From: a virus
Direction: 5' to 3' (one strand)
IMG/VR virus record: IMGVR_UViG_3300045988_111815
Coordinates: 80,893 to 144,892 of that record
DNA length: 64,000 bases
Shown here: one piece after another, positions 52,536-64,000 of the stretch
Position numbering within the stretch: the first letter of the stretch is position 1
Layout of the letters: every line of letters starts with the position of its first letter
Position numbers and translations under genes: made by a program
The notes under the pieces: model-generated
Databases searched by the model: none
What the model saw: only the letters and a program-made list of their open reading frames with translations
What the model was told of the DNA's origin: nothing

Positions 52536-53215
52536 TTAATCCCATCCTCCAGTAGTGTACAAAGATATATCTTCCTCCTCTACGTTTACACCTTTAATAG
52601 CCTGTAGAAGTTTTTTCTTTGTCTCCCGGCACATATTGTAACCATATCCTTTATACCGATATGAGCGCTCCCATGTACTTACTGGAAAAGGGATATTTTC
52701 GTCAATAACCAGCCTCTTCATATGAAGATGTTCGAAGAATTTCTCATGATAGAGTAGTTTGTACTCGTATGCTACTATACTTGCAGATGAGAATGGAAAA
52801 TAATCATCTTCTTTTTCTTCGTATTTGGGCTCCTTATAGTAAGCCATTTTTGTCACAGTAAAATCGAAGCTCCTAAGAATCTCTTTCGGCTTTCCAAACT
52901 CTGACTCTATGAACTCTATCCATACTCTTTCTCCCTCTTTCTGGAACGCACATACCTTCTCATTTCTATATTTAAATTTCCATCCTTATTTCTGATGTTT
53001 TTCATCATTGAACAAATCAACAGTTTCCTGAAAATCGCTTTCACTTTCAAAGAAAATATCAATGTCTTTTACTTTTTCTCCGGAAGAATATTCTTAAAAC
53101 ATCCACCAGCTATAAACCCTTTGTGACCTTCCATATACTTGTCAAGCCATCTTATTTGCCAGAAATTATCTGGAGTATCTATTATAAAATTGTTCATATC
53201 GTTTATGTTTTGCTG
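52536..53215 (-). pseudogene. Disrupted class-II nucleotidyltransferase (CCA-adding/poly(A)-polymerase head-domain family) gene
   Basis: Three collinear minus-strand pieces. Frame 1: MNNFIIDTPDNFWQIRWLDKYMEGHKGFIAGGCFKNILPEKK*. Shifted frame: (K)VKDIDIFFESESDFQETVDLFNDEKHQK, then TAA (plus ~52986-52988). The same frame then continues: …KYRNEKVCAFQKEGERVWIEFIESEFGKPKEILRSFDFTVTKMAYYK… into track ORF 52536..52856. Motif A GGCFKNILPEKKVKDIDIF matches GGAVRD…KDIDI. Motif B RSFDFTVTKMA matches RRDFTINAMA. The frameshift maps to a homopolymer (plus ttttt at 53063-53067). Restoring one A gives PEKKVKDIDI. Confidence 0.5.
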
Positions 53216-61768: not shown

Positions 61769-62141
61769 TTATTATATCTGCCATATTCGTTTCTTCCATC
61801 ATTCCGTATTTCAAAAATCATCTTCTTATGATCTTTGCCTGGTAACTTATCTTTAACAGCCTATATTACGCCCGCTATAGACGTGAATCCTGAATCTGTT
61901 ATTGAACACAGCAACACACCTCTGTTGGCGCCGGTGCTTATTGCTGACGCCTTTATAATATCATTTTTATATATTCTCATAATCTTTTGTTTTATTATCT
62001 ACAAACTTATCTATATCGTCTCTTATTCTTTTTAGCACTCCGGCTATAATTTCCGGCATCTCTCCTTCGGTACGGTTCAGAGTTTCTATCACCCCATCAA
62101 TCCTACCAATTTGACGCCATAAGAAATTGGCGTCTTTCGCA

Positions 62142-62390
62142 TTAAATTCCCTCATCATGTCTTATTTTACAGTAAACAACTTGCTTTTTTAAGCACCAGT
62201 CTTGCGATTCTGAGAGTGAACACCGTTCGGAGTTGTTAAAAAATATACAATCTTTGCAGAACATAAGAGGATCTTCGTCGTCACCAACTACTTTGACATC
62301 ATACTCTATACCATACAATTTTAATCTAAATACATCTCCTGTTTTTTTAGAAGACAAATCCATGTTCGGACCGAATGTTATTACTTCCAT
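62142..62390 (-). CDS. Small Cys-rich protein, CEGCIF-motif family member 2 (82 aa)
   Basis: MEVITFGPNMDLSSKKTGDVF…FCKDCIFF. Clear N-terminal and Cys-motif similarity to 63584..63844. Confidence 0.45.
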   Translation of the reverse strand: MEVITFGPNMDLSSKKTGDVFRLKLYGIEYDVKVVGDDEDPLMFCKDCIFFNNSERCSLSESQDWCLKKQVVYCKIRHDEGI

Positions 62391-62410
62391 ATAATTATGT
62401 TTTATTGTTT

Positions 62411-62504
62411 GTGAGATGCCCAGAATCGAACCAGGACCGGCACATACATACCGGCACGCCGCGCCATCCCTCTATGATACACAAATAGACATGCCTATTC
62501 TCAC
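62411..62504 (-). ncRNA. tRNA-like structured element A (not foldable by eye as a canonical tRNA)
   Basis: On the minus strand this 94-nt span reads GTGAGAA…GGTTCGATTCTGGGCATCTCAC. The 5' GUGAGAA pairs with the 3' AUCUCAC (6/7). A T-arm-like GGUUCGAUUC sits next to the 3' strand. Internal GC-rich hairpins are present. It lies directly upstream of the 62390 start. Confidence 0.3.
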
Positions 62505-62563
62505 GAACCGACATGCCAAAACCCAAAACTTAATTTGATGAATAAAATAGATTAACAAAAATA

Positions 62564-62887
62564 CTATTCTAATTCTTTTATAATGTCTTTTATGATATTT
62601 AGCCTCACCTCCTTCGTTTCTGGACTAATACAGCCAAACCATCCATATATCCTCCATTCTTCTTCTGGTTCTGTAGCCATACTTTTCTTTTCCTCCAATT
62701 CCGGGAAATATGTTTTCACCATTTTATCTAAATATAGCCCATAAAAGGATTCTATTTTTTTAGGAGTACTGAAAAACTTAAATACTATATTTCTCAACAT
62801 GACGCATATATAATTCCCATCCTCTAACCTTTCGATATTCTCATATACCTTTTTCCAAATGAATAATCGCTCTTCTTTTGTAAACAT
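62564..62887 (-). CDS. Hypothetical protein (107 aa)
   Basis: ORF only. Confidence 0.4.
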   Translation of the reverse strand: MFTKEERLFIWKKVYENIERLEDGNYICVMLRNIVFKFFSTPKKIESFYGLYLDKMVKTYFPELEEKKSMATEPEEEWRIYGWFGCISPETKEVRLNIIKDIIKELE

Positions 62888-62895
62888 ATCTTTCT

Positions 62896-63243
62896 TTATT
62901 TTTGTGGTATTATTTGACTGTACGCAGACTTTTCCATGTACACAACACTATGTTCCTGTCCAAGTATTTTCTTTGCTGCTTCTTTCTTTATCGCGCAATA
63001 TCTCCCTGTACGATACGGATTCTTTTGATCTGATCCATCCTCGACTTCGATAATAAAACAACCTCCGTCATCTATTATCTTTTTGCAATTGTCACATATT
63101 TCTCCCGTGCATATATGATGCGGCGCCTGCCCTTTGATGTTATTTCCTAATAAAGCAATCCCCATCTCTTCGCCACATATCATGCAGACTTCTATAGACG
63201 GATTCAATCCGTGTTCTGGATATAATGTAATACCATCTTTCAT
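62896..63243 (-). CDS. Zn-ribbon/Cys-rich protein (115 aa)
   Basis: CMICGEE…CTGEICDNCKK…GGCFIIEV. Preceded by the AGGAGG-like AAAGGAGGAAAGAAAATG. Confidence 0.45.
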   Translation of the reverse strand: MKDGITLYPEHGLNPSIEVCMICGEEMGIALLGNNIKGQAPHHICTGEICDNCKKIIDDGGCFIIEVEDGSDQKNPYRTGRYCAIKKEAAKKILGQEHSVVYMEKSAYSQIIPQK

Positions 63244-63282
63244 TTTCTTTCCTCCTTTGTTTTTAATGTTGTGTGAGATCGC

Positions 63283-63406
63283 CGGAATCGAACCGACCTA
63301 CCGCACCATGAATCCCATAAAGCAAGTGCTCCGATCTTCGCAGACGGGAGCACTTTGTCTAAAGCATAAGAAAATTAATGAAGAAATTTTTCTCACTTAC
63401 GCCATA
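63283..63406 (-). ncRNA. tRNA-like structured element B, second copy of the family
   Basis: On the minus strand the span reads GTGAGAAAAAT…GTCGGTTCGATTCCGGCGATCTCAC. T-arm-like GTCGG-TTCGATT-CCGGC. Internal perfect 7-bp hairpin GTGCTCC…GGAGCAC (plus 63329-63356). It shares a ~45-nt block with element A (GTGC.GGT..GGTTCGATTC.GG..ATCTCACA.AACA.TAAAA). Confidence 0.3.
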
Positions 63407-63583
63407 GCATCTAAAATAGCTATCAGCACTATTTCTATGACAAACATAATAGAAAATATCTTAAATGCCTTTTTCATATCGCTATCTCCTCCTTTTTATT
63501 TTTTTAGTTCCACAATAAACTGTTCCGGCTCTGCTCCGACCTACGTTCCACCTACAACCGCAGGCCTTAGCCCAAGGCGCCGC

Positions 63584-63844
63584 CTACTTCCCCTCTATGG
63601 CAGCCTGTTCGTACCTACAAAGCCAGTCTCCATCTACACAACTATCACTACTCGATAATAAACATTTATTCTTATAACAATCATGAAAAATACACCCCTC
63701 ACAACTGTAATCCTTAACTTCTGCACAGCTAACTACCTTAGCATATACTATACCATCACTACCTTCTATTCCTCTTACCCCAAAAATAGAACCTTCTCCC
63801 TCCTTACTCAAATCTAAGTCAGGTGCAAAATCATATACGTTCAT
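63584..63844 (-). CDS. Small Cys-rich protein, CEGCIF-motif family member 3 (86 aa)
   Basis: MNVYDFAPDLDLSKEGEGSIF…SCEGCIFHDC…. Confidence 0.45.
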   Translation of the reverse strand: MNVYDFAPDLDLSKEGEGSIFGVRGIEGSDGIVYAKVVSCAEVKDYSCEGCIFHDCYKNKCLLSSSDSCVDGDWLCRYEQAAIEGK

Positions 63845-64000
63845 GTTGTTTATATTTTAATTGTTAAACATTCCGATTACTACTAATCTATTGAATTTTG
63901 CGGAATAAACTCACATTATGCTGTTTTAAAACGCTGATCTGTTGAATTTTGTTGGAAAAAACCTACAGAATGATGTTTTAAAACCCTGTAAGTCTTGATT

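Follow-up and report, generated by a model that had tools for sequence, protein, structure and literature searches.

Anticodon-less tRNA-like elements upstream of early genes in an epsilon crAss-like gut phage: candidate signals for mRNA processing

Plant mitochondria define mRNA ends by means of t-elements, tRNA-like acceptor/T-arm structures that are recognised by RNase P and RNase Z. The same two enzymes excise a tRNA-like fold from the MALAT1 (mascRNA) and MEN-beta transcripts, which is then CCA-tailed. Examples of tRNA mimicry in the cutting of mRNA come from organelles and from a small number of eukaryotic long non-coding RNAs. Both RNase Z and the CCA-adding enzyme accept minihelix substrates made of an acceptor stem and a T arm. 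Repeated intergenic modules of another kind, the PeSL cassettes of T4-type phages, are found between small early genes, contain an early promoter and mediate modular shuffling. We found no description in the literature of tRNA mimicry for mRNA cutting in phages, nor any published description of elements like those reported here. The crAss-like phages, whose control of early gene expression is poorly understood, rank with the most abundant viruses in the human gut. The main recognition unit of RNase P is the acceptor/T-arm stack, and the enzyme also cleaves tRNA-like structures, the precursors of tmRNA, of 4.5S RNA and of the C4 RNA of phages P1/P7, and polycistronic operon mRNAs (reviewed in PMC11143913).

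The window analysed here, a stretch of 64,000 nucleotides, belongs to an epsilon crAss-like gut phage that is ~90% identical to crAssE-Sib. Two elements, A and B, are read on its minus strand, the orientation of all flanking ORFs. They are present in more than 100 related genomes, which also carry a third paralog, D; a fourth, E, was found in one larger relative and a similar element in an unrelated phage (L122). Each copy sits between genes on the coding strand, 20–33 nt 5′ of the next AUG, from which an A-rich leader separates it, and the elements are grouped in the earliest-expressed region, which adjoins the genome terminus. The comparisons below establish the fold, strand, conservation and paralogy of the elements and their fixed position relative to start codons. 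We tentatively propose that A and B belong to a small family of miniaturised tRNA-like elements without anticodon, which probably descend from tRNA genes and would mark the sites at which host enzymes cut the early leftward polycistronic mRNA.

Element A is an island of conservation between divergent genes. It begins, after the stop codon of a 107-aa ORF, with a near-invariant AT-rich stretch (62518-62563, minus strand) whose identity is 99–100% across ~98 related loci while that of the upstream gene drops to 57–89%; it may serve as promoter, operator or leader. The hairpin that follows, GGCAUGUC-G-GUUC-GUGA-GAAU-A-GGCAUGUC (62488-62517, minus strand), was given by the RNAalifold consensus and consists of an outer stem of 8 bp, a 1x1 internal loop, a further 4 bp and a GNRA tetraloop. 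All 12 of its pairs form in every one of 48 variants (100%), whose five one-sided changes all keep the pairing, and the same architecture is found in B and E. The tRNA-like helix proper starts with the acceptor-like 5′ strand A/G-GGGAUG (tRNA positions 1-7; 62465-62471), which has a G-run of 3-6 nt at its 5′ edge. A 29-nt linker (62436-62464) stands in place of the D arm, the anticodon arm and the variable region. It is followed by the T arm CCUGG-UUCGAUU-CUGGG (62419-62435; its segment 62432-62423 reads GGUUCGAUUC on the minus strand), with a 5-bp stem and a canonical 7-nt T loop, and, directly abutting the T stem, by the 3′ strand CAUCUCA (66-72) with discriminator C73 (62411-62418). Six of the seven acceptor positions are paired (62465-62471 with 62412-62418), 1-72 being mismatched; this stem is recovered in the MFE fold of the isolated element, and in an AUUUCA variant of the 3′ strand G4 is still paired with U69. 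The T stem is 99.6% paired over the 48 variants, which include CCCGG/CCGGG and UCUGG/CCAGG. The linker contains a small hairpin, GGUAU-GUAU-GUGCC, that is 98% paired with one-sided changes only; since 14 linker nucleotides are absent from L039 and L071, it is dispensable. The element ends with a conserved A-rich leader lacking a Shine-Dalgarno (SD) sequence (AAACAAUAAAAC..., 62391-62410, minus strand), immediately followed by the AUG (62390-62388) of the downstream gene. Similarity between A and B continues into this leader (repeat D1), and the gene-swap junctions at A fall right after ...CAAUAAAAC.

This fold keeps the acceptor-plus-T-arm topology on a structured minus-strand RNA that the first-pass annotation had recognised, together with its remarks that canonical D and anticodon arms could not be folded and that CCA is not encoded (AAACAA follows C62411), and replaces the 5′ partner. 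In that annotation the T-arm motif was immediately followed by AUCUCAC, which paired with an upstream GUGAGAA. The T-loop motif and AUCUCAC (62417-62411) are both there, but between them lie 5 nt, UGGGC, made up of the T-stem 3′ strand and one further nucleotide. The complementarity is real as well, with six pairs in both A and B, G62504-C62411 spanning 94 nt, and in A it is kept through A-to-G and C-to-U changes, but it is not the best-supported fold. Counted on the alignments, the GUGAGAA helix was rejected in favour of the proximal pairing of A/G-GGGAUG (62471-62465) with CAUCUCA (62418-62412), whose stem is contiguous with the T stem. GUGAGAA (62504-62498) is part of the conserved hairpin 62517-62488, where GUGA is the tetraloop and GA(A/G)U the inner stem, and the GACAUGCC variant of A is compatible with that hairpin only. 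Its counterpart in B, GUGAGA (63391-63396, minus strand), lies directly 3′ of the stop codon of a 26-aa hydrophobic micro-ORF and is probably outside the fold: over 53 variants the pairing has 6 broken cells, being lost in L033 and L087 and uncompensated in L060, whose 3′ strand has changed. D, E and the L122 element have no counterpart of it.

Element B has the same organization. Its hairpin, AAGUGCUCC-C-GUCU-GCGA-AGAU-C-GGAGCACUU (63324-63355, minus strand), has 9 bp below and 4 bp above a 1x1 internal loop, with a GNRA tetraloop on top, and three of its pairs are changed on both sides (27 cells), which none of 500 shuffles reaches. The 45-nt tRNA-like helix (63273-63317, minus strand) is made of UGGGAUU (1-7), a 13-nt linker (CAUGGUGCGGUAG), the T arm GUCGG-UUCGAUU-CCGGC, GAUCUCA (66-72) and C73, and all seven acceptor positions are paired. 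The 53 variants share an unchanged T loop and unchanged acceptor strands but differ in the linker, and the T stem alternates between GUCGG and GCUGG opposite CCGGC. The variant L060 (CGGGAUU/AAUUCCA) keeps the acceptor pairing; its swap C69U/U70C leaves the pairing intact, since G stands opposite both positions. A 125-nt stretch of B folds with a z-score of -3.0 relative to shuffled sequence. An alternative partner suggested by the MFE fold, GUG-C-GGU, was rejected, as it is broken in GCAGCAA variants. The leader ACAACAUUAAAAACAAAGGAGGAAAGAAA (63244-63272, minus strand) ends at the AUG at 63243, and right after its terminal ...AUUAAAA at least four different downstream contexts are found in related genomes; the gene 3′ of B has a strong SD. 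A GC-rich island at 63515-63590 (minus strand) with GUAGGUCGG-AGCAGAG-CCGG may be a degenerate third copy, 'C'. It is 99.5% conserved and resembles the T arm of B, has no T loop and folds no better than shuffled sequence, so that its membership in the A/B family is uncertain.

The fold is common to five lineages (A, B, D, E and L122). A 7-position acceptor stem abuts a 5-bp T stem as in tRNA, with no nucleotide between the stems, and a linker, of 13-29 nt in A and B, replaces the D and anticodon arms. MAFFT failed to align the acceptor 5′ strands across paralogs, and pairs were counted by position from the two ends; in this way 490 of 528 acceptor and T-stem cells are paired in 44 unique sequences, as compared to 392.6 ± 10.4 when the 3′ strands were re-dealt (maximum 435 in 2000 trials). 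Multiple compensatory pair types are found at 4-69, 5-68, 6-67, 49-65, 50-64 and 51-63, a strong signal that comes from the comparison between paralogs aligned by position; within each paralog the covariation consists mostly of one-sided wobble changes among close relatives of ~90% identity. The T stem of A differs by compensatory changes from those of B, D, E and the L122 element, bearing out the comparison of A with B that had been suggested as a check. G53-C61 is present in 44 of the 44 unique sequences, with the loop UUCGAUU, while position 1-72 is mismatched in 30 of the 44, and four of the five lineages have C as discriminator. The T loop has no evident D-loop partner, and the tRNA elbow that aids RNase P binding may thus be absent from the elements. 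The exact T-arm 10-mer occurs twice per window against 0.089 expected, and the full acceptor and T-arm helix with the exact 10-mer twice against 0.0007; when one mismatch is allowed, the two occurrences found (3.7 expected) are not unusual. The T-arm-like sequence is a genuine and conserved feature that chance is far from explaining. Folding energy was left out of the evidence because A (z = -0.07) and the isolated cores other than E fold no better than shuffled sequence.

Many of the G-U pairs of A and B would become C-A mismatches on the opposite strand, which identifies the minus-strand RNA as the structured strand. This bears on a reading in which the module acts as DNA, either as a promoter/terminator cassette or as a recombination site, with a secondary RNA fold, much like the T4-type cassettes. 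Conserved intergenic islands do flank swappable genes, the modules delimit recombinants as well as indel cassettes, and promoter-like repeats are found near the elements at the genome terminus. The stems, though, rely on strand-specific G-U pairs that exist only in RNA or single-stranded form, a scan for sigma-70-type promoters and intrinsic terminators gave no signal above chance, and we know of no role of the T-loop consensus in DNA. A DNA-level function appears to us very unlikely.

The remaining copies vary the theme. D variants change C-G to U-A at 51-63, and the 5′ strand of D is ambiguous, being either UGGUUGU or the adjacent GGGCUGU; a tRNA-Ile-like fold proposed for D by ARAGORN was rejected, as four linker haplotypes covary for a different hairpin, AUUC/GGAU. 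In its relaxed or mitochondrial mode ARAGORN gives E a D-armless fold resembling tRNA-Met, which fits the descent of the elements from tRNA genes; E is also the only copy with a 7-nt loop, CACAUAA, which has A33. The L122 element has a single Rfam match, to tRNA-Sec (17 bits, E=1.7). Pattern scans of viral contigs, species genomes and metagenomes returned the same phage group and L122/L131; the remaining matches were a genuine tRNA-Asn of a phage, a tRNA-like gene from a Xanthobacteraceae MAG and others due to chance. In 185,579 species genomes, a search pattern with an obligatory GGGAT in the 5′ strand gave no bacterial tRNA that combines this acceptor and T loop. A relaxed structural scanner produced too much noise to be of use (21-54 matches per shuffled window). 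A scan found no such elements in the related, cultured Cellulophaga phage phi17:2, in which tRNA genes are located inside an operon, directly before an ORF and with the same leader layout. In phi17:2 an inner tRNA-Ile is also found between the outer halves of a tRNA(CAU).

A and B are not real tRNAs. ARAGORN with default settings found no gene in the whole window, and only genuine tRNAs in the related loci and in the crAssE-Sib genome; at a 90% threshold it found none and at 80% poor, mutually inconsistent folds, while its relaxed, intron, mitochondrial and tmRNA modes yielded no consistent tRNA among the elements. Rfam returned nothing at gathering thresholds or at E ≤ 10, and in the crAssE-Sib record, for which tRNAscan-SE was used, no tRNA is annotated at A′, B′ or D. 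The elements share with canonical tRNA (RF00005) the acceptor stacked on a 5-bp T stem, the UUCRANY T loop and G53-C61, and they lack its cloverleaf with D and anticodon arms. A 7-nt anticodon loop with U33 exists in no copy, B having a 13-nt linker and A a 29-nt linker whose hairpin has a 4-nt loop. Both an intron-containing or otherwise non-canonical decoding tRNA closed by GUGAGAA/AUCUCAC and a tRNA 3′ fragment retained at an integration site had been envisaged for A. In support of the former stands the 6-bp complement described above, and against it stand the negative tRNA searches, the use of GUGA as the tetraloop in A and the erosion of the pairing in the other copies. The latter is at odds with the presence of a complementary 5′ strand in each copy and of at least four divergent, covarying paralogs per phage lineage. 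Integration-site searches moreover failed in the crAssE-Sib study (PMC11054128). We consider either origin extremely improbable. Membership in the tmRNA class is not supported by the ARAGORN tmRNA search or by Rfam, nor is CCA encoded. G2-C71, G3-U70 and G4-C69 are present in most A and B copies and in the L122 element, as in tRNA-Ala and tmRNA; G3-U70, the alanine identity pair, was nevertheless rejected as a defining feature because it is G3-C70 in D and E, and G3-C70 with G4-U69 in L060. The 3′ tRNA-like structures of tymoviruses, bromoviruses and tobamoviruses are also distinct: the elements lie within a transcript of a dsDNA phage, their acceptor is a plain helix, they lack CCA, and they match no TLS family of Rfam.

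The crAssE-Sib record annotates A′ as a protein-coding gene, WOZ57404.1 (52-aa CDS), and A contains a 43-aa ORF. A coding function was rejected, as the length polymorphism of the G-run and a 14-nt deletion break the frame, and the annotation of A′ needs correction. The small Cys-rich gene to which A had been linked proved an incidental neighbour: a different gene follows A in ~70% of related genomes, and neither Pfam nor PHROGs has a family for the Cys-rich proteins. The same applies to the other copies, B, D, E and the L122 element each preceding unrelated genes. Modules are found with differing downstream genes across related genomes, where indel cassettes and recombinants are bounded by them, and in L126 and L046 recombination took place at the shared GGTTCGATTC or at the tails. 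Such junctions are also what one would see if the elements were decaying, functionless tRNA pseudogenes that persist because they are short and recent and whose repeats merely promote recombination between gene modules. The degenerate tRNA-like folds that ARAGORN sees in E, D and A in relaxed and mitochondrial modes and the unremarkable folding energies agree with this view, as does a disrupted tRNA(CAU) gene in a related phage. Decay, however, does not account for the retention of only the acceptor and T arm in every paralog around a wholly different middle, for the compensatory and wobble-preserving changes that maintain stem pairing, for a T loop and acceptor that stay invariant while the linker and neighbouring genes vary, for the AUG spacing kept by all copies, or for a similar element in an unrelated phage. 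We regard functionless remnants as improbable.

Among the three readings originally offered for A, a processing signal for RNase P and RNase Z appears the best explanation. Host RNase P would recognise the acceptor/T-arm stack and cut 5′ of position 1, so that the upstream mRNA would end just past a protective hairpin. RNase Z, or an equivalent 3′ activity, would cut after discriminator C73 and release the downstream cistron with a short unstructured leader, and the excised RNA of 45-64 nt might receive CCA. The genuine tRNAs of the phage (Cys, Arg, Gln and Met) do not encode CCA either and thus need the same 3′ processing as is proposed for the elements. We infer transcription as a single unit, the cleavages, and a benefit that would lie in uncoupling the stability and translation of early genes and in portable intergenic modules. 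Several observations speak against such punctuation: the 1-72 mismatch and C discriminator are untypical of efficient pre-tRNA substrates, the tRNA elbow may be missing, A and the isolated elements other than E fold no better than shuffled sequence, covariation within each paralog is mostly one-sided, the 5′ strand of D is ambiguous, and the near-invariant AT-rich stretch 5′ of A has no explanation in a processing role.

That AT-rich region could instead hold a promoter, in which case the element would be a true 5′ leader. It would then be an uncleaved cis-acting 5′-UTR module: a stabiliser, a ribosome standby site, a translation enhancer for SD-less genes or a site bound by a protein of the phage or the host. 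The constant AUG distance of 20-33 nt, the conserved A-rich leader as part of the module, the SD-less gene after A and the travelling of modules with different downstream genes are in keeping with this role. It leaves unexplained the canonical T loop and the tRNA-register acceptor/T junction in five lineages, the gene after B has a strong SD, and the sigma-70-type promoter scan did no better than chance; we judge a purely leader function unlikely. Lower still is our confidence that the product itself matters, as an excised, CCA-tailed, anticodon-less tRNA mimic of 45-64 nt acting in trans as a decoy or sponge for host defence toxins or for enzymes directed at tRNA acceptor ends, as a synthetase substrate or as a primer. 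Acceptor-end enzymes recognise the top half of tRNA, the elements cluster in the earliest-expressed region by the terminus, and the phage lineage encodes tRNA-repair-type genes, namely a polynucleotide kinase/phosphatase and an enzyme of the CCA-adding/poly(A) polymerase family. The resemblance to tRNA-Ala and tmRNA at positions 2-71 to 4-69 points in the same direction, but G3-U70 is not conserved, the nucleotidyltransferase gene is a pseudogene in the window (the disruption noticed by the first-pass annotation), and trans action does not need a tight coupling to start codons. A bolder formulation, for which we see little chance, is that very early in infection epsilon crAss-like phages, together with at least one phage unrelated to them, produce CCA-tailed 'half-tRNAs' that act in trans and whose release also punctuates the early mRNA. 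These might sequester host defence toxins or enzymes by which tRNA acceptor ends are attacked or modified, or they might be charged and serve a purpose other than decoding.

If the elements are processing signals, as we tentatively favour, a bacteriophage uses tRNA mimicry to cut its mRNA into units. The combination of acceptor stem, short linker, T arm, A-rich leader and AUG is missed by tRNA finders and by Rfam, and can be searched for in viral genomes. An acceptor/T-arm mimic with a covariation-supported fold, at a cistron boundary within a predicted longer transcript, corresponds to the class of the t-elements and mascRNA. Like the elements, t-elements consist of an acceptor stem and a T arm only, are found next to or between coding sequences on the coding strand, are thought to be tRNA-derived and have the cutting role proposed here. 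They are organellar and experimentally mapped, whereas the present elements belong to a phage, their cleavage is predicted, A, B and E have a GNRA hairpin on the 5′ side, and the AUG follows at a fixed distance. The mascRNA-menRNA family of Rfam is similar in having a tRNA-like fold inside a longer transcript, with the same excision and CCA addition as proposed here; it is eukaryotic, nuclear and of full cloverleaf-like shape, and no sequence or covariance-model similarity was detected (Rfam E ≤ 10). With regard to the PeSL cassettes, shuffling junctions and recombinants are seen at our modules, and no promoter was identified by the sigma-70-type scan, which may not match the RNA polymerases of this phage. 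The tRNA-like domain of tmRNA, and the reduced tmRNA of jakobid mitochondria, also join an acceptor to a T arm without an anticodon arm, with the G3-U70 seen in most A and B copies, while the elements are devoid of mRNA-like domain, pseudoknots and encoded CCA and have their two strands contiguous, 13-32 nt apart. Armless mitochondrial tRNAs (D- or T-armless) are reduced to a comparable size of 45-64 nt, and E is called as one of them by ARAGORN in mitochondrial mode; A, B and D, in contrast, have no credible anticodon stem-loop, and covariation in the linker of D supports a different hairpin. The operon-embedded tRNA genes of phages (the T4 tRNA cluster; phi17:2) differ from the elements in having D and anticodon arms, in being detected by tRNA finders and in decoding, yet they have the same T-loop consensus, do not encode CCA and are placed directly before ORFs. 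They are the probable evolutionary source of the elements, and phi17:2, with its operon-embedded tRNAs, is a possible experimental system.

Two tRNA-like elements, A and B, lie on the minus strand of this epsilon crAss-like phage window. The T-loop motif GGUUCGAUUC of A is found at 62432-62423, within a T arm whose stem is CCUGG/CUGGG and whose 7-nt loop is UUCGAUU. The acceptor 3′ strand AUCUCAC occupies 62417-62411. The first-pass annotation located both parts correctly; its wording that the second immediately follows the first is slightly off, because 5 nt (UGGGC) separate them. Element B (63317-63273, minus strand) is a second copy with the T stem GUCGG/CCGGC. The 10-mer GGUUCGAUUC with one mismatch allowed is not unusual in the window (2 observed, 3.7 expected). 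The exact 10-mer is expected 0.089 times and the full acceptor plus T-arm helix built on it 0.0007 times per window; each is present twice. The acceptor 3′ strands of A and B pair with a nearby 5′ strand in the exact tRNA register. The match is complete in B (7/7 positions, U1GGGAUU7 with G66AUCUCA72) and misses one position in A (6/7, (A/G)1GGGAUG7 with C66AUCUCA72). Both elements have no gap between acceptor and T stem and carry C73 as discriminator. A linker (29 nt in A, 13 nt in B) takes the place of the D arm, anticodon arm and variable region; a small hairpin within the A linker is deleted in two variants.

The models of the first-pass annotation, in which A is closed by pairing AUCUCAC with GUGAGAA (62504-62498, minus strand), are one rival to the explanation favored below. 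This 5′ partner was misassigned: RNAalifold on 48 A variants predicts that GUGAGAA provides the GNRA tetraloop and the inner-stem 3′ strand of a separate 5′ hairpin, GGCAUGUC-G-GUUC-GUGA-GRAU-A-GGCAUGYC. All 12 of its 12 pairs are kept at 100% across the A variants, with five one-sided changes that preserve pairing, and the A variant GACAUGCC is compatible with the 5′ hairpin only. In B a hairpin is built the same way (AAGUGCUCC-C-GUCU-GCGA-AGAU-C-GGAGCACUU) and shows two-sided changes at three pairs (27 cells), a result reached by 0/500 shuffles. The corresponding GUGAGA helix has six broken cells in B among 53 variants. In locus L060 the 3′ strand has become AAUUCCA with GUGAGA unchanged, which adds a mismatch to that helix and keeps all pairs of the proximal one.

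ARAGORN called zero tRNAs and zero tmRNAs in the whole 64-kb window. The element is neither a tRNA nor a member of a curated RNA family. When ARAGORN was applied to the elements themselves, with lower thresholds, with introns, in mitochondrial mode and in tmRNA mode, it called nothing for B, and its folds for A and for the third paralog D were poor and mutually inconsistent. Rfam returned no matches at gathering thresholds and, at E ≤ 10 on 61800-64000, three chance-level matches only, none to a tRNA, tmRNA or tRNA-like family. Scans of 185,579 species genomes and of a metagenome collection identified neither a bacterial tRNA with this acceptor and T loop nor new lineages of the element, and literature searches found no description of such elements. 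Two other sequences were noted. A Xanthobacteraceae MAG (JAIESR010000080.1; L145 7402-7466, minus strand) carries a tRNA-like AGGGAUG...CAUCUCA-ACCA sequence with a D arm, a 5-nt “anticodon” loop, G3-U70 and an encoded CCA, directly 5′ of what by eye appears to be a tRNA gene; ARAGORN called nothing at this locus. An unrelated viral contig (L138 2022-2095, plus strand) encodes a genuine phage tRNA-Asn(GUU) whose acceptor, UGGGAUG/CAUCUCA, contains the G3-U70 wobble pair. G3-U70 is normally an alanine identity mark.

A pattern scan of viral contigs identified at least 119 loci in the same phage group, most of which carry A and B together, 850-1250 nt apart, and which yield 49 unique A and 52 unique B sequences. 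A custom scanner (5-bp T stem, UUCRANH loop, acceptor with at least 6/7 positions paired) detected A and B only in the window and, in 100 kb of the related phage crAssE-Sib, genuine tRNAs, the counterparts A′ and B′, and D. With a loose T-loop pattern it gives on average about one match per shuffled window; membership is therefore argued from the exact T loop, from conservation and from layout rather than from the scanner by itself. Element D (crAssE-Sib 569-506, minus strand; also L002 7819-7882, plus strand, and ~40 other loci) reads U1GGUUGU7, a 32-nt linker, UCCGG-UUCGAUU-CCGGA, G66CAACCU72 and C73, followed by the leader UAAAUUAUAAACAAUACAAUAAC and then AUG. In 42 loci D precedes B by ~1.8 kb; the genome terminus lies between the two, and D falls outside the window. 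Among D variants, a T-stem pair changes from C-G to U-A, and the linker occurs in four haplotypes that covary for a small hairpin. The D 5′ strand overlaps the end of the CDS annotated at crAssE-Sib 556-843, which may be over-extended. A fourth type, E, is found in a 173-kb relative (L037 10975-11036, plus strand): G1GGACGA, a 30-nt linker, AGCGG-UUCGAUU-CCGCU, CCGUCCC and A73, with a GUGA-capped hairpin 5′ and a DUF4494 gene 3′. An unrelated environmental phage (L122/L131) has C1GGGAUG7, an acceptor 5′ strand that the search pattern did not specify, then a 31-nt linker, GGUGG-UUCGAUU-CCACC, U66AUCUCA72 and C73, 24 nt upstream of a zinc-ribbon gene. All copies are intergenic and on the coding strand, and in all of them an A-rich leader of 20-33 nt connects the discriminator to the start codon. 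A rival reading of this layout is a 5′-UTR module that stays uncleaved.

Because MAFFT could not align the 5′ strands of different paralogs, pairs were counted by position from both ends in 44 unique sequences. Acceptor and T stem are paired in 490/528 cells; re-dealing the 3′ strands to other sequences gave a mean of 392.6 ± 10.4 and never more than 435 across 2000 trials. Pair types are G-C/U-A/A-U at 4-69, A-U/U-A/C-G at 5-68 and U-A/G-C at 6-67 in the acceptor, and C-G/G-C/U-A/A-U at 49-65, C-G/U-G/G-C/U-A at 50-64 and U-G/C-G/U-A at 51-63 in the T stem. Position 1-72 is mismatched in 30/44 sequences. G3-U70 occurs in most A and B copies and in L122; its absence from D, E and L060 led us to reject it as a defining feature. 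The numerous G-U pairs in the stems make the fold specific to the transcribed strand. A rival reading takes the elements to be functionless pseudogenes.

The intergenic region of A is a conservation island, with 98-100% identity at 62575-62501 versus 57-89% in the neighboring gene. The Cys-rich gene downstream, to which the first-pass annotation linked A, is absent in ~70% of related loci, where a different gene comes directly after ...AUCUCACAAACAAUAAAAC, and B has at least four different downstream contexts. Since the genes after A and B vary, that association is incidental. Together with the 63-aa ORF that follows it, the Cys-rich gene makes up an insertion/deletion cassette (62000-62390, minus strand), which is present in ~28 of ~98 related loci and has AATAAAAC direct repeats on both sides. 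The 82-aa and 86-aa Cys-rich proteins (62142-62390 and 63584-63844, minus strand) look like paralogs by eye, and neither was assigned to a Pfam or PHROG family; for the 115-aa CxxC protein after B the sole match is phrog_11852, a family of unknown function. Gene-swap junctions fall at the end of the A-rich tail of the elements, and A-B similarity continues into this leader tail. B/A recombinants have their junction either in the T-loop sequence common to both elements or in the tails. In L126 (IMGVR_UViG_3300045988_125320, minus strand, ~817) the B 5′ part is fused to the A 3′ part at the shared GGTTCGATTC, with the intervening genes deleted and the T stem broken; in the natural recombinant L046 (5769-5975, minus strand) A's downstream gene directly follows B. 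An element acting as a cassette at the DNA level is the rival that concerns these exchanges. A GC-rich island (63515-63590, minus strand) that is 99.5% conserved separates the first Cys-rich gene from a hydrophobic micro-ORF of 26 aa. It contains GUAGGUCGG-AGCAGAG-CCGG, which is like B's T arm without the T loop. An old tandem duplication is suggested by CAUAGAGGGGAUGACGCGGCG, the middle part of A, which is similar to the 3′ end of the first Cys-rich gene together with the beginning of the island.

The element region is ~90% identical to crAssE-Sib (OR575929; spelled csAssE-Sib in the record), a 151-kb epsilon crAss-like phage from human gut for which six tRNAs were reported using tRNAscan-SE (PMC11054128). 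That annotation has no tRNA where A′, B′ and D lie. A′ is annotated as the hypothetical protein WOZ57404.1, an assignment we reject because in related genomes its frame is interrupted by a 14-nt deletion and by a G-run whose length varies between 3 and 6. A and B are located no more than ~3 kb from the right genome terminus, where a long leftward block of genes begins, small ORFs first and replication genes after them. Just upstream of the block's first early ORF, adjoining the terminus, are tandem repeats of ~52 nt (CAAAATTCAAyAGAT...TTTTAAAACAGCATwmTGTAG; window 63880-64000, minus strand; L001 650-800, plus strand), promoter-like sequences that are candidate early promoters for a phage RNA polymerase. 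The poly(A) polymerase/CCA-adding family nucleotidyltransferase gene (52536-53197, minus strand) is, as the first-pass annotation remarked, disrupted: relative to crAssE-Sib WOZ57379.1 it is a pseudogene with a 1-nt deletion at ~53086/53085 and a nonsense codon. One contig of this phage (L149, NZ_DXLG01000138.1; 3.9 kb), which includes B and D, was binned in a Veillonella sp. MAG, which is weak evidence on the host, and several early genes have strong GGAGG ribosome-binding sites. Cultured relatives of crAss-like phages infect Bacteroidota; both observations are odd for such a phage.

The genuine phage tRNAs (Cys, Arg, Gln, Met) likewise lack an encoded CCA, and E in ARAGORN mitochondrial mode gives a 64-nt D-armless tRNA-Met(CAU)-like fold with A33. 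The cultured phages most closely related by capsid protein are Cellulophaga phages phi17:2 and phi4:1 (34% identity). The scanner was run on phi17:2 and detected none of these elements. It did find operon-embedded tRNAs, including a tRNA(CAU)-like gene (L144 42678-42826; NC_021798.1, record 142678-142826) split by an entire tRNA-Ile gene; after the 3′ half of the split gene come an A-rich leader and then the next ORF. These features fit descent of the elements from tRNA genes with loss of the lower half. The phi17:2 insert, a complete tRNA-Ile(GAU) gene, interrupts the anticodon loop, and in the native sequence only this inner tRNA is called or annotated; once it is deleted in silico, ARAGORN reads the flanks, now joined, as a 76-nt tRNA-Met(CAT) with a weak anticodon stem. 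If RNase P and RNase Z cut out the inner tRNA, the outer halves would be left with 3′-OH and 5′-P ends, and an RNA ligase could join them.

The element is a real, conserved, strand-specific RNA with the architecture of an upper-half tRNA, and the parts kept in all members are those on which RNase P relies most. Acceptor/T-arm substrates are also accepted by RNase Z and the CCA-adding enzyme. The best explanation, which we put forward tentatively, is that the elements are tRNA-like punctuation of the early transcript, and we infer each cleavage step. RNase P would cut at position 1 and leave the upstream mRNA ending after the GNRA hairpin; RNase Z would cut after C73 and free the next cistron with a short unstructured leader. 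In a further rival, the excised half-tRNA acts in trans. Known RNase P targets include tRNA-like structures, phage RNAs and polycistronic mRNAs (PMC11143913). The elements are best classed with tRNA-like processing elements, as a new variant with a putative processing role.
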